This document shows, one piece after another, positions 19,313-53,171 of a DNA stretch of 64,000 nucleotides (the first letter of the stretch is position 1; each line of letters begins with the position of its first letter). The DNA is taken from IMG/VR virus record IMGVR_UViG_3300041955_000531. The stretch is one strand, 5' to 3'. The position numbers were made by a program, and so were the translations under genes. The notes beneath the pieces were generated by a model. It saw nothing but the letters and a program-made list of their open reading frames with translations. It ran no database searches and was not told the DNA's origin. Origin of the DNA: a virus.

Positions 19313-19419
19313 GGTGTCTCCCGGGGAGGGATTCGAACCCTCCCCTTCGGTATTCAGGACCGACGTGCTCCGTCGACGGCCTACTATTTTATCGAACTCC
19401 AATACACCACCCAAGAGAC
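19313..19419 (-). tRNA. atypical tRNA-like RNA (Gln-like body, anticodon loop CCTGAAT, 35-nt D-loop)
   Basis: acceptor GTCTCTTGGG/CCCGGGAGAC; D-stem GTGT/GCAC; anticodon stem TCGGT/ACCGA; T-arm GAGGG-TTCGAAT-CCCTC. Confidence 0.65.
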
Positions 19420-19568: not shown

Positions 19569-20360
19569 TTATTCAACCTGTGGGACGGCGTCGCTCACAG
19601 CAACAACGTGAGACTTCTCGCCTTCAATATACTCCACAGGCTTTTGTAACTTGTCTTGGACAGCTTCCCAGACCATCTGGAAGACCTGTCCCGGAGTCTG
19701 TTCGGGATAGACAGTGATCACGATCGTGCGATCCTGACCTACTAGTCTTTCCAGATACTCCTGCTGGATTCGAATCTGGTCTTGGGTGTGAGCCCAGGCC
19801 TTTCCAGCTTGTTTGTTGTTGTCGCCGCGCCGTTGACGCGCGCGGTCGAGAAAAGCATCCACATCTGATGCTACGAACAGCACGGTGATGTCTGGCAGTG
19901 GTCCGTAGAACTCCTGGAAAGCATCCAGTATAACACCTGGCGTCTTCTTTATGGGTGCGTAGGCCCACTCGGAGTCGGAGTAACGGTCGGACAATACCAC
20001 CAAGCCTTTTTCAAGGGCCGGCTCAACCACCTTTGCCACATGCTGAATGTGATCGGCGAGGAAGAGACAGTCAGCCACTCCACGGGCCATGTTGTGTGTC
20101 GTGACCGTGTGGAACAAGATTTGGCGTATCGCAGAGCCCAAGTCAGTTGGGTCGACTGGGCTGCCAGGTTCCTTTGTAACCACAACCCCATAACCTTCCT
20201 CCCTCATGCGGGCAGCAAGCATCTCCAACTGCGTGGACTTACCCGTTCCATCTACTCCCTCGAAGGTTATGAGACGTCCCTTCCGTACTGGCTTATGAAG
20301 CTCTGGGTAAAGAGGATCTCCAAAAATCCGCTTATAGTTTTCTTTCGTCTCTTCCGACAT
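19569..20360 (-). CDS. tmk: thymidylate kinase with cassette-derived replacement N-terminus
   Basis: ITFEGVDGTGKST P-loop; TKEPG; LFLAD; SDRY. Confidence 0.93.
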   Translation of the reverse strand: MSEETKENYKRIFGDPLYPELHKPVRKGRLITFEGVDGTGKSTQLEMLAARMREEGYGVVVTKEPGSPVDPTDLGSAIRQILFHTVTTHNMARGVADCLFLADHIQHVAKVVEPALEKGLVVLSDRYSDSEWAYAPIKKTPGVILDAFQEFYGPLPDITVLFVASDVDAFLDRARQRRGDNNKQAGKAWAHTQDQIRIQQEYLERLVGQDRTIVITVYPEQTPGQVFQMVWEAVQDKLQKPVEYIEGEKSHVVAVSDAVPQVE

Positions 20361-20880
20361 TTATGCTCCTCATCCATTCTGCCACTTTCATTACTTCTTC
20401 AGGGGTGGCATCGTTCTTGATTACATTAGCCCGCTGGCTAATAACTTGAATATTTCCTGGGACATAACCCTTATTAGGAACAATCCTATCAAGAGTTGGA
20501 CTCGACGCAATAGAACCTGGCTTCCCAACCCCTTTCTTCAATACTATTCCAAGAATAGGACAGACCAAAGGTATTTTGGGGACGTCGGCGGGCTTAATAG
20601 AAAAAGGTAAGTGCTTCTTTATTGCCCTCTTCCTCGCCCCATTCCATAAAGCATACTCTGGGGTGTTGAAAAGACCATGCTTCAAACCACTATGCCCTTT
20701 CTTATAACACCCGCAACTTTTGCTTCTTCCGTTCTCAAGGTTGGAACCAATAACGTTTACTACCTTGCCACATTTACATTCACATTGCCAACGAGTAGCA
20801 CCCCATCTGGCGTTCTCAACCTGCTTGATAACCTTGAGCCAAGTGAATGTCTTTCCAACAAGATCCAGTATCTTTCCCAT
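20332..20880 (-). CDS. HNH-type homing endonuclease
   Basis: DLVGKTF..WQCECKCG..SKSCGC N-terminal module; CPILG..SPTLDRIVPNKGYVPGNIQVISQRANVIK. Confidence 0.85.
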   Translation of the reverse strand: MGKILDLVGKTFTWLKVIKQVENARWGATRWQCECKCGKVVNVIGSNLENGRSKSCGCYKKGHSGLKHGLFNTPEYALWNGARKRAIKKHLPFSIKPADVPKIPLVCPILGIVLKKGVGKPGSIASSPTLDRIVPNKGYVPGNIQVISQRANVIKNDATPEEVMKVAEWMRSINVGRDERKL

Positions 20881-20930: not shown

Positions 20931-20970
20931 GTAAATCAACGCCTTCGAACGTGATGAAATGTCCTTTCAT
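20923..20970 (-). pseudogene. tmk: orphaned original 5' end of tmk (MKGHFITFEGVD-LLY*)
   Basis: AGGAG SD, then ATG AAA GGA CAT TTC ATC ACG TTC GAA GGC GTT GAT TTA CTA TAC TAA. Confidence 0.8.
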
Positions 20971-29805: not shown

Positions 29806-32800
29806 CTCTGTCCTCAATCATTTGAAACGTTTTCTCGTTTACGAAGATGCCTTTCTCTCCCTCTTCCTTAAGATAAGAGAGTAGCCCTTCGCGATCGCTA
29901 AGCACCCGGTCAACGAACCAACGCAAATCGACCTGGTGAGCGCGACGGTTAATGACCTTACGATCAAGTGCTTGTTCAGCAGCCGCCACTTTAGCATAAA
30001 AAGTGTTGTAGACATGTTCGTCAATGCTATTCTTAGCCATCAAGACGTACACATTACACGTACGGTTCTCTGAGGTAGGAGTGAATGCGCGAGACCATGC
30101 CTGTTGCTGTAGCCCCGGCTCCCACAAAAGATCGCAGCAAATGACCGTGTTCGCAGCCGAGAGATTGGTCCCTTCGCGGATCTGTCTTGTTCCAGCAATA
30201 AATATTTTCCTAGTAGGATCTTCAAGGAAAGCCTCGAAGTTTTCGTTTCTTTCATCATCATCCCATGTGCCGTCGAAGACGATCGGATTGTGCTCCGACA
30301 ACATCTTCGCCAGCGATTTTCTCATCTCTACGAAGTCCGTAAGAACGACCACCTTCTCGTTTGATGCCACCTTAGTAGCACAGATGTTCTGAATATCAGA
30401 CATCTTCCCGCCACCGAGTGGGCCATCGTAGATAGCAGGCTTACCGACCTTCTTAAGTTTGGCATTGAAGTACTCCGGACATGTGGCGCCGATGCGTAGA
30501 TACACCATCTGGCTAACCACCATGGCTTGGTTCAGCAAATGCCCTTGCTGCGCAACTTGAGCAGCGTACTGATTAAAGTTCGACTCAAAGTGGTTGATTG
30601 CTGCCACCATGAGCTGCGCTTGCTTTGGATCCATAGTCGATTCCACGCGATGAAACTCAACGTTCGGGTAGTATCGATTGGCCTTTGCGAGAGAGGCTTT
30701 AACGAGTTCATCTTCGTAGTTCCTTCGGACCATCTTTGAAGACATCAGCTCCCAGAAGGCAACTGGGTTCTTCAAATAAGGCAGCATCTTACGGCTGTCT
30801 TTTAGCCCGTGGCCTCGCTTGATGTTGATGTACTCACAGAAGCGATCGTAGAACTCTGTAGCTCCATCTTTCTGATGATACGGGAATGCCGCTGATCCTC
30901 CCTTAAACACCCAATGAAGCGGCCAAAACGCGTCCGCAGGAGTATTGGGCATAAGGGTCCCAGTAAGGCCCATGCGGCGCTTGGCCCGTATAGAACGGAT
31001 TGCTTTCCCCGTGTCAGAGTCCAATGATTTGATTGTATGTATCTCATCGATGATGGCTCCCGTGAAGTAGTCCTTGAGATGGACCTTCTTACTGCGGTCC
31101 GTCAGAATTCTTTGCTTGTAAGGCGCCGGGATCCAAACCGCGTCTGCTTGGTGGCATTCGTGGCAGTACCTGCCCTTAACGTTCTTGTCTTTGCAATCCT
31201 GATGGAACTTTAGGCCCCAGTCAATCCAACCGATGTAGCTATCCGGGAAGGTCACGGTCTCTTCAATGATCCCGTCAACCATCTTCCCTTCGTCGTTCTT
31301 GACCTTGCCTTTCTTCTGTACGACTTGGTCAACCTTGGCGCCAGTAAAGGACTTGATGTTCTGTACCTGGCCGCCGAGCTTTATCGGCTTAGCCCTCTTG
31401 ATCTTACGAGTCGTAGAGTCAATCGTATATCCCCACGCTGCGCCATTGATCGGGGCGCCCATGCGAGAAGTAAACTTTACCTTGCAATCGCACAGTTGGT
31501 TCCGGCAGATGTAACCACGCTCCTTAGTCCAGGAGATGGTCTTCTCCAACAGGAAACCTTCTGCGCTCTTGTTCTTCTTGACGTCCAAGCGCTCCAACGA
31601 TCGCTTACAGAAGGGACACTTGTGTTCGACAGTGATCTCCTTCCTATTCTCCGTGTATGTCCGATGCAGATAGCTTTGTCCCTTACGCCGGAAGACACGA
31701 TGAGGATCGAATGTCTTCTTCATCCAGCTGTAGGTCAGGAGGTAGAATGTTCCCGGCTTCTTAAGATCCTCCATGCTGTCAACCACGACATAGTTCTTAA
31801 GCCCAAGCCGCTCGAACTCCTTAACCGTGAATAGGCGTGCATTTCGTGGCGCAACAATAGCCACACGCTTACTGCCCCAAAACATGGCACAGACGATAGA
31901 CTCCGACGTCTTCCCCATGCGCATGAGCTTACCATTGAGGGTGCCACGCTTAAGAGCTTCCTGTACAGCATCGACTTTGACGTGGTCGTACAGCTCAAGA
32001 CCCATTGCATCCAGTCGCTTTTGGTACATAGCCAAGAGCTCGGGATACCTGACGGGTACACACTTAGAAGGTTCGTAGATGACTTTCTCTTCATAGTGAA
32101 AGTTGTTCTCCAGATCGCCGTTGAACACTGTCCATGGAAAGACTGTGTCATCTGCCATGATGATCTTGCAGCCGGGTGCAATAGCCACCTTGCTGATCTT
32201 CACCATGCCGTCTTGATGTTCCTTGGCGTCCTCGGCGTTTCCTCCGCCTTGTCCGCCGCGCGCTGTGTCAACCACCTGATACCGCTGGCCCTTGGTAAAG
32301 ATCCTTTGGTTATCAAAGTCAAAGTTCTTGGTACATTCAAGAATCATACCAGCCTCGACCTTCTCGAACAGCATCCGCTCATCCTTGAAGTCGGGCAGCA
32401 GGAAAGGAGTCAGCTCCTTAGCCAGGCGCTTCTCTTCTTTCTTGACCCAGTTACCCAATGATGGAGAGATTGTCACGCCCAGGTGATAGCGCGCGAGCAA
32501 TCTTACCATCGGATGTTCGTCCAGCTTCACGTTGACCAAGCTCCAGGCCCTGGTGGCCCGAGCAAAGTCCATGGGCTGAACATCCGGCAGCAACTGAATC
32601 TCTAGCTTCTCCCGAGTAGCCGTAAGAACCGGGTTAGCAAGCTGGGCGATTCGTTCTCTGATTTCGATAAGGGCAACTGCGGCATGGACATCGTTCGGTG
32701 TAATGACGATCTTACCGCCACCCTTGTGAAGAGTAACGGATGGAGTGTCAGATACTCCGAGGGGCAGAACTGCCTTATGAGCCTTCGCTTTCTTAACCAC

Positions 32801-32911
32801 CGGAGCGGGCGGAACATAAGGCTGTACGGGTGCGGACTGTTGATCATTCTGTTCCACTTCTACCTCATCGAGATCGAAATCAAGTGCATTTACGTACTCG
32901 ATTTTCTTCAT
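29798..32911 (-). CDS. SNF2-family helicase/translocase with large Cys-rich insertion
   Basis: MGKTS; IIDEIH; LTGTLMPN; EGTNLSAA; QAWSRA. Confidence 0.88.
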   Translation of the reverse strand: MKKIEYVNALDFDLDEVEVEQNDQQSAPVQPYVPPAPVVKKAKAHKAVLPLGVSDTPSVTLHKGGGKIVITPNDVHAAVALIEIRERIAQLANPVLTATREKLEIQLLPDVQPMDFARATRAWSLVNVKLDEHPMVRLLARYHLGVTISPSLGNWVKKEEKRLAKELTPFLLPDFKDERMLFEKVEAGMILECTKNFDFDNQRIFTKGQRYQVVDTARGGQGGGNAEDAKEHQDGMVKISKVAIAPGCKIIMADDTVFPWTVFNGDLENNFHYEEKVIYEPSKCVPVRYPELLAMYQKRLDAMGLELYDHVKVDAVQEALKRGTLNGKLMRMGKTSESIVCAMFWGSKRVAIVAPRNARLFTVKEFERLGLKNYVVVDSMEDLKKPGTFYLLTYSWMKKTFDPHRVFRRKGQSYLHRTYTENRKEITVEHKCPFCKRSLERLDVKKNKSAEGFLLEKTISWTKERGYICRNQLCDCKVKFTSRMGAPINGAAWGYTIDSTTRKIKRAKPIKLGGQVQNIKSFTGAKVDQVVQKKGKVKNDEGKMVDGIIEETVTFPDSYIGWIDWGLKFHQDCKDKNVKGRYCHECHQADAVWIPAPYKQRILTDRSKKVHLKDYFTGAIIDEIHTIKSLDSDTGKAIRSIRAKRRMGLTGTLMPNTPADAFWPLHWVFKGGSAAFPYHQKDGATEFYDRFCEYINIKRGHGLKDSRKMLPYLKNPVAFWELMSSKMVRRNYEDELVKASLAKANRYYPNVEFHRVESTMDPKQAQLMVAAINHFESNFNQYAAQVAQQGHLLNQAMVVSQMVYLRIGATCPEYFNAKLKKVGKPAIYDGPLGGGKMSDIQNICATKVASNEKVVVLTDFVEMRKSLAKMLSEHNPIVFDGTWDDDERNENFEAFLEDPTRKIFIAGTRQIREGTNLSAANTVICCDLLWEPGLQQQAWSRAFTPTSENRTCNVYVLMAKNSIDEHVYNTFYAKVAAAEQALDRKVINRRAHQVDLRWFVDRVLSDREGLLSYLKEEGEKGIFVNEKTFQMIEDRDV

Positions 32912-33093
32912 CGGTGCAGAACCTTCCCTAGTTTCATGATATCATACCGACCCTTCCCTAGGGTTCCAGCTTGCCAGCCGGCCCTATGGAAGTTATGTCC
33001 CGGGCTTGAACGAGACCAGAACATGTAGACGAGATCGATGATGGAAGCGATGATGATTCCACCAACGACCCAACCCCATTTCACATAGTTCAT
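32908..33093 (-). CDS. small membrane protein
   Basis: one hydrophobic segment; ATGA coupling. Confidence 0.55.
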   Translation of the reverse strand: MNYVKWGWVVGGIIIASIIDLVYMFWSRSSPGHNFHRAGWQAGTLGKGRYDIMKLGKVLHR

Positions 33094-33779
33094 TCTAACT
33101 CCGTGAACAGGAAAGACTTGTACGTTCGCTTTCCGCGCGTAAGCATTTTGCCCACCACTTCCTTTTTAGGAGCTCGGCCGAAGAGATAGAGCTGCGCAAA
33201 CGCCTTGACGTCGTCCGGAGCAACAAGGAGTGGAATAGGACTGACCCGAGGGAAAACATGCTTACCCTTCCGCCGATTAAGCCGTTTCCATTCCTGTGCA
33301 CGGTATTTGTCCATATACGCAAGTACCTGTTTCTCATTGGCTTGTAAGATTGCTTCTCTCTTCGCCTTGATTTGATCCAAGAACTTCTTCATGGGCAATG
33401 CGTCAGGCAAGGCACATAGACTATAATGCGTGTCGAAGCAGCGCCATGAGACTTCCTTAGGTGATAGCGAGCGCGTAGTAGAGACGAGTTTACCATCCAC
33501 ACCCCGATACCGCTGGGTAGTACGCAGGTCGCCCCAAGTCCAGGAATCGTTCCCCCGGGCCCGGTACAAGTAATAGTAAGCTTCGAGGAACTTTTCGGGC
33601 GTAACCCCGTTGCGCCCCAGTCCAAAATATAAGTAGTCCCTGACGGACATCTTGATGATTCTGAGTGCGATAGTTTGTTCCACATTTAACTCTCCCTTGA
33701 ACAACGATGCCATGAAATCGTCGTCAAGATTGTTGAGGCTCTTCTGGCCCCCGAACGGGTTCTTGCTCATCCCGGGCAT
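33090..33779 (-). CDS. hypothetical protein
   Basis: GAGGAGG SD. Confidence 0.65.
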   Translation of the reverse strand: MPGMSKNPFGGQKSLNNLDDDFMASLFKGELNVEQTIALRIIKMSVRDYLYFGLGRNGVTPEKFLEAYYYLYRARGNDSWTWGDLRTTQRYRGVDGKLVSTTRSLSPKEVSWRCFDTHYSLCALPDALPMKKFLDQIKAKREAILQANEKQVLAYMDKYRAQEWKRLNRRKGKHVFPRVSPIPLLVAPDDVKAFAQLYLFGRAPKKEVVGKMLTRGKRTYKSFLFTELE

Positions 33780-34077
33780 TCTCAACCTCCTCAAACTTCA
33801 CATCGGTCTTCAGCCGGACTGTGTTAAACTTGTATGCTTCCACGATCGTCTTGGCAGGACCGGCCAGCCCATTGATAAAGCGATGGCCTTTCTTCCTCTT
33901 AACGATCGTCAAGGTACCCAGTCCTTCGACATCTACATCTCGGCCTTCCTTGATGGCCTTCTTCCATACCTCTACGACCTGATCGACCAGCTTGGCTGCC
34001 TTACGTTGTGAGTAGCCTAACTGATCGACCAGGCGTTGTGCGAGTAAAGCCTTACCAGCTCTCAGTTTGCCTGGCAT
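33724..34077 (-). CDS. HU/IHF-like DNA-binding protein
   Basis: AAKLVDQVVEV..AIKEG..V.VEGLGTLTIVKRK; TAATG coupling to the DYWKKG stop. Confidence 0.75.
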   Translation of the reverse strand: MPGKLRAGKALLAQRLVDQLGYSQRKAAKLVDQVVEVWKKAIKEGRDVDVEGLGTLTIVKRKKGHRFINGLAGPAKTIVEAYKFNTVRLKTDVKFEEVENARDEQEPVRGPEEPQQS

Positions 34078-34610
34078 TATCCCTTCTTCCAATAGTCGCT
34101 GATTCTAATAGCATGTTCAACGAACTCCTCGACAGACAAATCTCTCTTGGCATAGTTACACTGCTTGCAACAAGGCACGCAGTTGTCTGGCGTGTATCCA
34201 ATGCTGGAATCTTTCCTGTCAACTCCATTATGCTTATAGGAATCACTGGGTGTAGTCCAAACAAGAGCGGGTTCTGCGCCGCAGTAATAACAACGTTGAG
34301 AAGTTATCTCCTTAAACTGCTCATCAGAAAGTTCCCAAGTCTGCCCTCTTTTTCGGGCTGCTTGTCTGTAAGCATTCAGAAGTGCTCGGAAAGATGACCC
34401 TTCTTTCTTTCTCTTGTTACTGGAAACAGCCTTTCGTAAACAACCGCAACTGAATGTATTCTTACCCAAATGTGCCTGGGATACATTACAGAAACGCTTA
34501 CATGTACATTGACATCTCCATACAGCTCCGCCGAACCTATTGTTCTTCAAGCGACGGATGACCGTCAGATGCCCGATGACCTTGCCTTTCAAATCGATTA
34601 AGTTTGCCAT
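34077..34610 (-). CDS. HNH-type homing endonuclease ending in the original PolA C-terminus
   Basis: DLKGK..WRCQCTC..SCGC; CYYCG; NGVDRKDSSIGYTPDNCVPCCKQCNYAK; ends ISDYWKKG*. Confidence 0.88.
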   Translation of the reverse strand: MANLIDLKGKVIGHLTVIRRLKNNRFGGAVWRCQCTCKRFCNVSQAHLGKNTFSCGCLRKAVSSNKRKKEGSSFRALLNAYRQAARKRGQTWELSDEQFKEITSQRCYYCGAEPALVWTTPSDSYKHNGVDRKDSSIGYTPDNCVPCCKQCNYAKRDLSVEEFVEHAIRISDYWKKG

Positions 34611-34698
34611 AACTACCTCCAGTCCTGATTAGTATAGGCTTTACCTATCTTACAGTTCAGTTGAACTGGATGAATGGCTAACCTTTCTTCCAATAATC
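34098..34698 (-). mobile_element. intron-less HNH cassette inserted at the polA 3' end, carrying a recoded polA terminus
   Basis: GATTATTGGAAGAAAGGTTAG (34678-34698) versus GACTATTGGAAGAAGGGATAA (34077-34097): 4 differences, all synonymous. Confidence 0.75.
34625..34636 (-). promoter_or_regulatory. putative phage promoter motif TATACTAATCAG within an RBS-occluding hairpin
   Basis: identical to motif at 7630; TCCAGTT (34670-34664) can pair with GACTGGA overlapping the GGAGG SD. Confidence 0.6.
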
Positions 34699-35664
34699 CG
34701 CCACGGTCACGTCCGTCTTGTGAATGATATGATCATGATTCGTCTGTCCCTCAGACGGAATCAACTGATTGTATGCCCACTGCATCCCGTCCACCATGAT
34801 CTTGTTGACCGCATCGACTTCGCTGTCCGGACAAGTGAGGACAAGTTCGTCATGAACGAAAAGGAGGAAATGGGCCTCGTGGATGAGAGGGCCAGAGGAT
34901 TGACCCCCGCGGAGATCGAGATAGATCTTGCTGACAGCCATCTTAAGGGCGTCAGCACATGCCGCTTGAATGGGGTGGTTACCTGTGTATCTTTTGATCT
35001 GACTGATAATCTCATTGTAACGGTCCTTCTCTTCCTTGCCGCCGTCAGGATCTTTATATGGTATTTGGTAGAACCTGTAATGGCCGCCTAAAGACTTGGA
35101 CCAGCCATACTTAAGACCGTGCTTGCCTTGTTTGTCCAGCCAGATCTTCAGACCCTTCGCCTTCTTGAAGTAGTCGTCGATCAGCTTCTCGGCTTGCTCT
35201 TCGGTGTAGGGAGGTTCGTTCGACCCTGGTTTTCGGCCGCTATTAATCTGTTTAGCCACCTGACCTGGGCCTGCGCCATACGGCACACCGAATGTTGTGG
35301 TCTTAATCTCCGACCGCCAGCCATAATATTGATTGTATAGGGGATGGTCTTCATGTTTGTATGCATAAAAGAAGTCGTCGTACGGTATCCCATGGACGTC
35401 CGATGCCATATAACAATGAATGTCCTTGCCCGAGTTCAAAGCCTCCAACAGCCACTCATCTTGAGACTCCCAGGCCATGATACGGACTTCAATCTGACTG
35501 TAGTCCGCGCCTAGGATCTTCCAGCCCGGGCGGGCCCTGATACCCTCTCGGATATCAGGGACTCGCCAGGCTATCCATGGCTGTGGATGTTTCTTATCGG
35601 CCGGGCAGAGATAGTACTCCCTTCCGTTGCTGATACCTAACAGCTCTGGTTTTACGCCGGCCAT
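34678..35664 (-). CDS. polA: family-A DNA polymerase, C-terminal (palm/fingers) subunit
   Basis: motif A ADYSQIEVR; motif B RSEIKTTTFGVPYG; NHPIQ; motif C VHDELV; own AAGGAG SD. Confidence 0.92.
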   Translation of the reverse strand: MAGVKPELLGISNGREYYLCPADKKHPQPWIAWRVPDIREGIRARPGWKILGADYSQIEVRIMAWESQDEWLLEALNSGKDIHCYMASDVHGIPYDDFFYAYKHEDHPLYNQYYGWRSEIKTTTFGVPYGAGPGQVAKQINSGRKPGSNEPPYTEEQAEKLIDDYFKKAKGLKIWLDKQGKHGLKYGWSKSLGGHYRFYQIPYKDPDGGKEEKDRYNEIISQIKRYTGNHPIQAACADALKMAVSKIYLDLRGGQSSGPLIHEAHFLLFVHDELVLTCPDSEVDAVNKIMVDGMQWAYNQLIPSEGQTNHDHIIHKTDVTVADYWKKG

Positions 35665-35673
35665 GTTGTCTCC

Positions 35674-36129
35674 TTACGGGGCGGAGAAGCCTATACTTTC
35701 GTCTTCGTGCTTCCCTTCCTCTTCATCTTGTTCGAAGAGCTCGGCGCCATCTTCTGAGGCAACCTCGCGACTTAAACCAGCCTTCTGCGCGCGCGTAGCA
35801 TTCCGGTAGTCACGTTCAGTGAACGCCGACTCGAGAATGATATTGCCTTCCTTATCTCGATAGGCCCACCATTGTGGTTCCACCTTCACCAAGCCGATGG
35901 CCTCACCAACCTTACGGTAGAAGCGGCCGACTGACTTTGTAGTCATGGCTCTGGAGATATCAAAATCTGCCACAGCCTCCTGAAGCTTGCGATACTCTTC
36001 CACGAGCGTAGTCTTATAGCGCTCATACTCGACGAAGAGTTCTGTTGCTTCCTGGAAGATCTCAGGATGTGACTCCTTGATCTCTGACAGCTTGTATTTC
36101 GTTGTACGGATGATCCTATTTCTTGCCAC
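35674..36129 (-). CDS. hypothetical protein with acidic tail, lying between the two polA halves
   Basis: GGAGG SD plus GTG at 36129; track ORF 35674..36216. Confidence 0.7.
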   Translation of the reverse strand: MARNRIIRTTKYKLSEIKESHPEIFQEATELFVEYERYKTTLVEEYRKLQEAVADFDISRAMTTKSVGRFYRKVGEAIGLVKVEPQWWAYRDKEGNIILESAFTERDYRNATRAQKAGLSREVASEDGAELFEQDEEEGKHEDESIGFSAP

Positions 36130-37501
36130 TGGCAACCTCCGGTTGATTGAACTTCTCCACAGCTTTATTGTACTGCTCTGAGAACAAAATCTTGATATGT
36201 TCTGCCGCGTCTCCAACGACAGGATCTAAGATATGATCAGGTCTCGGGAACTGCTGTGCATCCGACGACCACCGCCCTGTAGCAATAGTAGTCGCCTTGT
36301 CCCCGCCTTTTCTCTTTTCCAGATCGCCGGACCCCAGTTGATTAAACTCAGGGTGCAGACGACCATCAGTAGTAGACCTACGAGCAAGCATCCTTTCGCC
36401 ATAAGTTGAAATGATCTTGGTACACTCAGTGTACTCTCCTAAGAGATCAGCGAACTCCGTCTCTAAGGCAAGAAGTGTCTCCCTCTTAGTATCCTTTACT
36501 TCAAAGCCCATCTTGTGAAGAGCTCCCAACTTCTTGGTAGCTGAGTTGATATCAAACTCTTCCATTGTATCAGGCAGGAGGAAGTTACGCTTCTTTCCTG
36601 CCTTGTCGAGGGCATCATCATAAATCTGCATGGCTTTATCCCTGATGCTCTTCGCCTTGGCGCGCCAGTAATCTAGCGTGGACTCAATGCGCTGATCATC
36701 AAGATCAAAGCCCGTCAGCTCTGCGTCGGCCGTGCCAGCCATAGCACAGAACTCTATTTGAATCCTTTCCCACATCCCAGGATGCTTCTTGATTTCCTTC
36801 AGCTGCTCTTGCTTGATTGGAAATAGGAGGAAGACGTCACGGGCGGCGTAGTAAAGGTGTCGGTATTGTAATACGCCAGACATGTTAATAAACTCGCGAC
36901 GGACAGCTTTGGAGATGAGATAGTGTGGAGGGTATTTCTCCGATAGTTCTTCAAGACCGACCTGAACTCCATATAAACCCGCCGTGAGTATTTGCTCTGC
37001 CAGCATCGTATCGTACAAGCTGGGGATGTATACCTTGGTTTTATCATCGTAGTGATAGTTGATGAAGTGGACTCCATACTTAGCCAGGCAGAACTTGAAG
37101 TCGTACACTCCGTTCTGGGTTAAGAAGAGCCTGTCTTCATCCTCCAGGATTCCCTTAAACTCCGGTACCAGCTTTGGTTCAATAAGGTAAACCATCTTAG
37201 GAGTACCCAGCTGGAATAGAAGCATGCGGGACGATGGCGAAAGCGGGTCCAGTCCATCGCGTTTATTATCGCCCCCAGTTTCAGAGTCGATACCAAGTTC
37301 TTGTTGTTTGGTAAGCCACGTAAGCGGTGCAGATAGGTCATTCTTAGAATGTACCTTGGTGATGTCCGAATCCGGAACCGCTCCTTCTCCAATGGATCCA
37401 TTTATCCACTCCGGTGTGCCAATAACATGGAAGGGAACATCAATGTGCTCCTCAAGTTGCTTGGACGTTATCGTCTGGAACGCTGGCTTCTTGCTTGCCA
37501 C
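36116..37501 (-). CDS. polA: family-A DNA polymerase, N-terminal subunit (3'-5' exonuclease plus thumb)
   Basis: ExoI IDSET; ExoII QNGVYD; YDTMLAE; ExoIII YAARDV; GRLHPEFNQ; ATGRWSS..QQFPR; likely GTG start at 37501. Confidence 0.9.
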   Translation of the reverse strand: MASKKPAFQTITSKQLEEHIDVPFHVIGTPEWINGSIGEGAVPDSDITKVHSKNDLSAPLTWLTKQQELGIDSETGGDNKRDGLDPLSPSSRMLLFQLGTPKMVYLIEPKLVPEFKGILEDEDRLFLTQNGVYDFKFCLAKYGVHFINYHYDDKTKVYIPSLYDTMLAEQILTAGLYGVQVGLEELSEKYPPHYLISKAVRREFINMSGVLQYRHLYYAARDVFLLFPIKQEQLKEIKKHPGMWERIQIEFCAMAGTADAELTGFDLDDQRIESTLDYWRAKAKSIRDKAMQIYDDALDKAGKKRNFLLPDTMEEFDINSATKKLGALHKMGFEVKDTKRETLLALETEFADLLGEYTECTKIISTYGERMLARRSTTDGRLHPEFNQLGSGDLEKRKGGDKATTIATGRWSSDAQQFPRPDHILDPVVGDAAEHIKILFSEQYNKAVEKFNQPEVASGKK

Positions 37502-38006
37502 AGATCGCCTCGTGTGCTGCTGTGATTTCGGGCAACTTGTTGCCCAAGAAACTGAAGAGCTCACCCAACTGAGGACCGACAGTCCACGTCTGATAGAGCG
37601 GATGCTCATAGATATCCAAGGATGAAGACAGACTGAATGATGGCACGATCAGGAAGCCCAAGAGCTGACCACGAGTAATCAAACGGGTACAGCACTCATA
37701 GACTTCGAAGTTCAAATGGAAACGCCAGTTAAACTTCTCTCCAATCTTGATGCCGATCAGATAGACAGTATGTAGTGGAACATGTGGCGCCACTCCGAAA
37801 GGGAGTATCTGTTTGTAGCCACCGCCCCACATAGTAACCTGCTTCTTACTCTCTATCTGCTTCAGAAGTACACTACCGTACCCGCTATTGCTAGTAATGT
37901 TGATATTCAGAATAGTGCAGGCTCTCCATGCATCCTTGGACCAGGAGGCATGTTGCCAAACAGCCTGTCCGATGTGATACCCTGCGAATGGTTCTTTATC
38001 TGGCAT
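37452..38006 (-). CDS. hypothetical protein
   Basis: GAGGAG SD. Confidence 0.6.
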   Translation of the reverse strand: MPDKEPFAGYHIGQAVWQHASWSKDAWRACTILNINITSNSGYGSVLLKQIESKKQVTMWGGGYKQILPFGVAPHVPLHTVYLIGIKIGEKFNWRFHLNFEVYECCTRLITRGQLLGFLIVPSFSLSSSLDIYEHPLYQTWTVGPQLGELFSFLGNKLPEITAAHEAICGKQEASVPDDNVQAT

Positions 38007-52354: not shown

Positions 52355-52673
52355 AGCCCCTCTCTTCTGTGTGATTCACAAAACCAATAGTGTTAATGAA
52401 CATATCAAGGCCTGGCTTTGGTTTGCCAGCACCATCATAGTATACACCAAGTTTGCCTAAGACGCCAAAGGCTTGGATCTTGTCTCCCTTTTTGAGGGTA
52501 GATCGTACAAAGTTCTGGAGCCTCGGGTTCCAAACAGTAGCCGTGATCCAATCGGCATGACGGGAGGCGCCACGCCGGCAAGCCACAGAGAGTACTGTAA
52601 CCTCCACGTTGCCAATCGTTTGAACATAGGGATCCTTTCCCAGAAAACCCGTCACCTCTAACTTAATGGACAC
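52338..52673 (-). CDS. ssb: single-stranded DNA-binding protein (OB fold, short tail)
   Basis: VTGFLGKDP; LSVA; DWITATVW; LKKGDKI.AFG.L. Confidence 0.75.
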   Translation of the reverse strand: MSIKLEVTGFLGKDPYVQTIGNVEVTVLSVACRRGASRHADWITATVWNPRLQNFVRSTLKKGDKIQAFGVLGKLGVYYDGAGKPKPGLDMFINTIGFVNHTEERGYDPDA

Positions 52674-53088
52674 GTCGGATCTCCTTAAGCCATTCATGAT
52701 AAACAACTTCTGGCTTTGCCATCTTTGCATTCTGGCAGAACACACAGCAAGGAACACAGTTCTCGCTGGTGTAATCCTTACCTGAATCTCTTCGATCGAT
52801 ACCGAAATAGATTAAGGAGAATCTTTCTGGTCTCTTACCACCAGGGTGCTTCAGCTTATTCCCAAAATGAAATCGCGAGCAGCCACAGTGAAAACAACGA
52901 TCAGCAAAGATCATTGATTCGTATTCGCTTCTTGTTATCTCTACCTTGAGGCCTCGCACTTCAGCATTATACTCAAGCATGCTCCACGTTCTCGTGATAG
53001 CCCCGCGAATATACTGAGCGTCACGACGCGGACCGTAATCGTGAGGGAGATATCTCTTATCAGGCTGTCCGTCTTTCCTAACTCTCAT
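52663..53088 (-). CDS. HNH-type endonuclease
   Basis: CFHCG; GIDRRDSGKDYTSENCVPCCVFCQNAK. Confidence 0.8.
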   Translation of the reverse strand: MRVRKDGQPDKRYLPHDYGPRRDAQYIRGAITRTWSMLEYNAEVRGLKVEITRSEYESMIFADRCFHCGCSRFHFGNKLKHPGGKRPERFSLIYFGIDRRDSGKDYTSENCVPCCVFCQNAKMAKPEVVYHEWLKEIRRVH

Positions 53089-53171
53089 CGGTATCTCCCG
53101 AGTAAGATCCAGGACCAAAACCCTGGGCCAACTTTCCAGGCCCGTCTAGCCCACTTCCAGCGATACCACAT
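53085..53171 (-). CDS. 28-aa Trp/Arg-rich peptide MWYRWKWARRAWKVGPGFWSWILLGRYR
   Basis: translated by hand; fills the gap exactly; ATGA overlap with the HNH start. Confidence 0.4.
   Translation of the reverse strand: MWYRWKWARRAWKVGPGFWSWILLGRYR

Follow-up and report, generated by a model that had tools for sequence, protein, structure and literature searches.

A PacI-like nuclease cassette beside a phage DNA polymerase gene and its probable entry by terminal replacement

Genes and control elements of the locus

The window, the whole stretch of 64,000 nucleotides that was analysed, belongs to the large genome of an uncultured phage, and its minus strand carries all the genes. The host gene of the cassette is polA-C (34678-35664, minus strand), which encodes, in 328 residues, the C-terminal half of a family A DNA polymerase that is naturally split (Pfam DNA_pol_A, E 5.7e-39) and whose alleles are 93-100% identical. 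A relative with a 95% identical polA-C is the 215-kb complete viral contig G001. More distant homologues (43%) lie on Acidobacteria MAG contigs, giving a weak hint at the host, and no close polA was found in cultured phages (best about 26-30% identity). The split polymerase spans 34678-37609, with the N-terminal half (36116-37609) followed by a conserved 151-aa ORF of unknown family and then by the C-terminal half; neither an intron nor an intein was seen in this region. The arrangement is kept in relatives at the 73% level, and many homologues at 40% have the same start point. Within polA-C, the silent sites of codons 226-255 (about 34900-34990, 90 nt) are almost invariant across alleles that diverge by about 12% elsewhere. 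This conservation is unexplained, with a recent sweep, a crossover zone or a constraint on the DNA or RNA as the candidates. Elsewhere in the window, a borderline Rfam match to a tRNA (19324-19411, 29.4 bits), uncalled by ARAGORN, is possibly a degenerate tRNA.

Downstream of polA-C lies a free-standing nuclease gene (34077-34610, minus strand) encoding 177 residues, followed by an HU-like gene (33724-34077, minus strand; Pfam Bac_DNA_binding) whose start codon overlaps the nuclease stop in the sequence TAATG. The nuclease matched endonuclease VII/HNH families in PHROG (best E 1.2e-20), and a Pfam search of it gave no match. PacI (PDB 3ldy) was the best match both by sequence (E 0.003) and by fold (E 4e-5, probability 1.0). 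The likeness lies in the catalytic domain, where the DR, Y and CxxCN residues align with those of PacI, whereas an N-terminal Cys-rich domain is extra and the overall TM-score of the model (pLDDT 86) to PacI is low, 0.40. The residues Asp131, Arg132, Tyr139, Asn143 and Asn152 are invariant in 13 relatives in the family alignment, and the predicted catalytic motif is intact. The modelled structure thus has a PacI-type beta-beta-alpha-metal domain with predicted Zn-binding cysteines. The gene is optional at a fixed site, being present in the window allele and absent from L001-3, L172-183 and L267, and G001 has no orthologue of it. No Rfam intron was matched in the window, and the polA ORF is complete ahead of the cassette. 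Judged by its sequence, the gene has the testable features of a free-standing phage homing endonuclease, with putative cleavage. The window also holds a related HNH gene, HNH1 (20332-20880), beside the tmk gene, and a third PacI-like ORF (52663-53118), which overlaps a probable single-stranded DNA-binding gene and has no promoter motif of the kind described below.

The polymerase half ends in VADYWKKG and the nuclease in ISDYWKKG. The two 21-nt copies, at 34678-34698 and 34077-34097 on the minus strand, differ at four positions, all silent, as had been read from the sequence in the original prediction. Among all pairs of the 329 window ORFs, DYWKKG is the longest C-terminus in common (6 residues, the next being 4), and a random match of a hexapeptide has a probability of about 1.4e-8 from the window amino-acid frequencies. 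The same 1.9-kb arrangement was found in several independent assemblies with 0-1 differences, which rules out an assembly artefact. DYWKKG is the consensus end of the polA family and is absent from 12 of 12 HNH homologues, which goes against the condition for refutation set in the original prediction, that it is a normal terminus of this HNH family; in the nuclease it lies at the end of the last helix, a region that is freely variable among family members. Homologues carry similar residues at the junction (R-x-S-[ND]-[YF]), so the exact breakpoint, before the Asp or before the Trp, is uncertain. That the tail is a normal HNH C-terminus after all, or was shaped by the need of HU for a ribosome-binding site, is barely conceivable: the purine-rich KKG codons could act as a Shine-Dalgarno sequence and one homologue's tail contains a Trp, but the match probability and the lack of the tail in the homologues speak against convergence, and a nuclease-free orphan native end in the allele L267, described below, refutes it.

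Between the polymerase stop and the nuclease start lies the motif CTATACTAATCAG (34625-34637, minus strand), which resembles a phage promoter. Within the window its exact matches stand before the two HNH genes at polA and tmk only, and it also occurs before a third HNH gene in the contig L273 and in L267. In G001 (L274-L280) the 13-nt motif is perfectly conserved at seven sites ahead of various genes, and 7/7 matches to its first 9 nt there extend to the same 13 nt. The earlier reading of a promoter shared as a cassette feature therefore gave way to a phage-wide motif, and a cassette-specific promoter was rejected. The motif is probably a phage-specific late promoter; since it is otherwise absent from the replication region, we infer late use. 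In L273 (1248-2534) an HNH1-like gene with the same promoter has an end that overlaps the polA-C start, and the ORF ahead of it begins with MAGNKP, the start usual for polA-C, which may reflect a 5' replacement at the opposite end of polA-C.

On read-through transcripts, an RNA stem-loop is predicted at 34600-34684 (minus strand; -27.1 kcal/mol, z -3.4, 0/200 shuffles). Its 5' arm includes the recoded polA end, and it pairs the HNH start codon and part of the Shine-Dalgarno sequence. When only the part downstream of the promoter was folded, the stem-loop was lost, so it would be absent from the promoter-started transcript. Weaker hairpins (z about -1.9) precede the tmk and L273 nucleases. The same layout of promoter and hairpin is described for I-TevI and SegB of phage T4 (PMC2988022).

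Empty alleles, scar alleles and other invaded genes

Alleles at 93-99% protein identity that have no nuclease were taken as empty alleles, a comparison that rests on about five distinct allele types. In L172-175, L180-182 and L013 the polA gene ends in TGG AAG AAG GGA TGA, and the stop codon overlaps the start of a 36-aa ORF. The window polA ends in AAG AAA GGT TAG, differing from them in the stop codon and in the codons for the second Lys and the Gly, whereas the nuclease tail is identical over 13 nt to the end of these alleles, which keep the native downstream context, and over 16 nt to the orphan end in L267. Because the empty-allele ends match the nuclease tail and not the window polA end, the downstream copy is the native one. 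The empty alleles therefore bear out the view that DYWKKG is of polA origin, that the copy at 34077-34097 is the native end after displacement, serving now as the last six codons and stop of the nuclease and as the purine-rich run ahead of the HU start, and that the synonymously recoded copy at 34678-34698 was supplied by the cassette. The opposite polarity, with an original upstream copy and a nuclease tail brought from another allele or an earlier site, is very unlikely. The upstream copy is contiguous with polA and has two codon choices in common with L001, but every close allele with an intact native small ORF directly after polA has the downstream type of end, and the orphan ends of L267 and L176 are placed exactly at the native-end position, before the small ORF.

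The TAATG overlap had been proposed as the ancestral coupling of polA to HU, and this part did not hold. None of the empty alleles shows it, nor does any of them have polA directly before HU; every one carries a spacer of 60-240 nt, mostly with one or two small ORFs, and an ancestral TAATG junction was therefore rejected. L001 and L180 do have a TAATG junction, where it lies at the end of a second small ORF. Allele comparison shows that the window lost its spacer by a deletion that joined the native end to this small-ORF/HU junction and left HU coupled to the nuclease. The spacers themselves hold one to three tandem ORFs of 20-36 aa rich in Trp, Cys and Arg (L172:3484-3600, L180:2687-2930, L004:4398-4700). 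Distant relatives conserve these ORFs, which annotators have not called and which the window has lost.

A second lineage carries what look like scars. In L267 a different recoded polA end is followed by 43 nt, the same promoter motif, the orphan native end and the small ORF, and the nuclease is absent. This order of parts is that of the cassette layout, which indicates that the nuclease ORF was deleted there. In L176/177 the promoter has been lost by a deletion between two short repeats, and in L178/179/282 the orphan end is lost too. The series from L267 through L176/177 to L178/179/282 shows, on this comparison, an apparent stepwise erosion after nuclease loss. L001-3, with a small ORF that lacks its start, are plausibly a further scar, although ambiguous. 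The site has therefore either received two incoming ends of different sequence or held a single old element that diverged later; as the scar lineage no longer has its nuclease, its element need not be the one in the window.

These alleles also bear on whether the nuclease is a domesticated phage protein with a role in repair, resolution or action against competitors, the allele differences then being ordinary mosaic recombination. The genomes are mosaic and the nuclease family, with 87,000 representatives at E<=1e-10, is a very large one, as such a role would allow, but most close alleles have no copy of the gene, the scar lineage has deleted it, and its relatives elsewhere share only about 40% identity with it. 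A sparse, deletable gene with distant relatives is as expected of a selfish element, and we consider domestication unlikely.

A similar case lies at tmk (19569-20360), whose new start lies inside the end of HNH1. In the empty allele L183, dut is followed directly by tmk, and in the window 12 codons of the native 5' end of tmk are stranded before HNH1 (20935-20970, minus strand). Compared with L183 over 36 nt, the remnant has 7 differences and the new copy has 13. The proposed parallel to polA is thus upheld, with a native remnant and a cassette-supplied start. Further cases, in unrelated phages, came from a survey of related HNH loci on viral contigs, as the original prediction had suggested. 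A strong duplicate of the neighbour's end was found at 4 of 73 independent loci and at none of 397 control gene triplets (p 5e-4). L229 and L252 have methylase-like neighbour genes with orphan ends, the duplicate in L189 is fused in frame, and L200 is of the 5' type. A stop-anchored test adds two in-frame fusions of the kind seen at polA, L220, whose neighbour is a ribonucleotide reductase-like gene, and L193/195, for a total of up to 6/73. We relied on the control triplets and the stop-anchored test because matches of HNH genes to one another, and of methylases to one another, had contaminated the cross-locus null of the unanchored C-type survey; L262, a tandem HNH locus, was left out. The resulting frequency of 5-8% is rough, as the thresholds were post hoc and the duplicates were scored from the occupied loci alone.

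Taking the evidence together, we propose, with a probability of roughly 80%, that a free-standing homing endonuclease cassette invaded polA by terminal replacement. The cassette would comprise a recoded polA 3' end, a 67-nt spacer with the phage promoter and the hairpin predicted to sequester the start codon, and the PacI-like nuclease ORF. It would have entered about 6-7 codons before the polA stop, the incoming end restoring the polymerase with its protein unchanged. The allele comparison shows that the native end was pushed 601 nt downstream, where it is in frame with the nuclease and serves as its C-terminus and stop. It also shows that a separate deletion of the small ORFs behind the native end produced the TAATG junction with HU. 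In a mixed infection, the late-made nuclease would cut susceptible polA alleles within their last ~200 nt or so, and repair of the break would copy the cassette together with flanking DNA. When the recoded allele has become fixed, loss of the nuclease ORF would leave scars such as L267, L176 and L178.

The foreign tract and the candidate cleavage sites

The cassette lies in an approximate foreign tract of about 2.7 kb (32300-34950), which diverges by 5-29% from the empty allele L281, against mostly 0-2% on both sides. Its downstream part is 1-6% away from the L001 lineage. Along polA-C, 8 of 690 nt differ from L172 and then 33 of 297 (p 1e-11). A co-conversion tract is a possible reading of this pattern. 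The genomes are mosaic and other patches of 8-14% divergence lie nearby, so the tract need not come from homing.

Inside the tract, a recoded patch covers polymerase motif C (34837-34890, minus strand; codons 259-276), about 190 nt upstream of the insertion, and is a candidate region for both cleavage and immunity. It differs at 14 of 54 nt from L172, otherwise the nearest empty allele to the window polA (1.2% elsewhere), whereas L176/L267, scar alleles that are 12% divergent elsewhere, differ from it at only 1 of the 54 (p 0.008). Because the window and the scar lineage share the patch, motif C is a serious candidate for the cleavage site. We put a cut at motif C at nearly even odds; a cut at the native end junction is possible and somewhat less probable, and the remainder falls to sites elsewhere. 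If motif C is cut, the tail duplication marks the arrival of the element and not immunity.

The shared patch is also what would be expected if the element had spread by classic intronless homing with motif C as its only target. The duplication would then be a one-off relic of arrival, produced by illegitimate recombination through the slight similarity of the nuclease end to the polA end, and the recoded tail would have no part in immunity. The free-standing endonucleases of T4 cut hundreds of bases from their own genes (PMC2988022), and the Ser-Asp/Asn-Tyr-like residues at the junction of HNH homologues offer the similarity. Against this account, the tmk case, the cases in other phages and the presence at one site of two recoded ends that differ point to recurrence, not to a one-off event, and the motif C patch is missing from the putative scar L001. 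We hold this account to be a real prospect, if short of probable. The architecture is the same as under terminal replacement, and only the target and the meaning of the duplication differ.

Relation to known elements and implications

Terminal replacement itself has precedents. In yeast, WHO elements replace the 3' end of the essential gene FBA1 on integration, and no splicing is involved (Coughlan et al. 2020, PMC7282813). The window element resembles them in homing without splicing and in the replacement of a gene end by the element. WHO elements are eukaryotic, with an intein-related HO-like nuclease, and their allele-specific cleavage was shown experimentally, whereas the window element, known from its sequence alone, has a PacI-like nuclease, duplicates 6-7 codons and has the displaced end fused to the nuclease. 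Similarly, mORFs of fungal mitochondria make gene hybrids, as in atp6 of Allomyces (Paquin 1994, as cited in PMC3630166), atp6, atp9, cox2 and nad3 of Glomus (PMC3630166) and rps3 of Ophiostoma (as cited in PMC4019555). They combine a foreign C-terminus, an endonuclease ORF and a displaced native C-terminus downstream, but they carry LAGLIDADG or GIY-YIG enzymes, belong to organelles and make longer duplications. The phage HNH element has its own promoter and also comes in a 5'-end version, at tmk. The polA locus has the foreign gene end, the nuclease and the displaced native end of these systems, as the empty and scar alleles show, with recoding at both the tail and motif C; its nuclease is a PacI-like HNH enzyme in a phage, and not a LAGLIDADG, GIY-YIG or HO-like nuclease in a eukaryote. 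The cassette works like WHO and mORF elements but is no member of either, as nuclease and host differ.

Among phage elements, the Seg and Mob nucleases of T4 are likewise free-standing beside conserved essential genes, with a middle or late promoter and an RNA hairpin that hides the ribosome-binding site, and they co-convert their flanks, for which the foreign tract here is a possible counterpart (PMC2988022). The insertions covered by that review are intergenic or split a gene, and the string "duplicat" is absent from its text; the window element differs in that the insertion lies inside a coding end and is repaired by a duplicate. One PacI-like phage HNH protein has been assayed and had no exclusion activity (PMC12724721), which counts against the proposal. 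We found no published account of end duplication by a phage nuclease, though an earlier phage description may have been missed. Splicing-free homing by terminal replacement, put forward in the original prediction as a general strategy, was overstated, as it was already described in yeast (PMC7282813) and in fungal mitochondria (PMC3630166). What is new is a probable phage version of known terminal replacement with an unusually complete series of alleles.

A wider reading, which we offer tentatively, is that this very large family of phage HNH nucleases routinely invades by terminal replacement, at the 5' or the 3' end of a gene. Both copies would then be working parts of the element, and the alleles at this one site would represent every stage of its cycle, from invasion and co-conversion to nuclease loss and the erosion of scars. 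If this is true, the incoming end contributes to the hairpin that keeps the nuclease silent before the late promoter is active, and the next gene takes its ribosome-binding site from the displaced end, which also provides the nuclease tail. The site lends itself unusually well to tests, offering a 177-aa enzyme, natural alleles of both the empty and the recoded kind, and two candidate targets separated by about 190 nt. Terminal replacement would show how a free-standing phage nuclease gets into an essential gene with neither intron nor intein, a step left open in the account based on T4, and would mean that the ends of phage genes and short 'intergenic' spacers can be the scars of past invasions.
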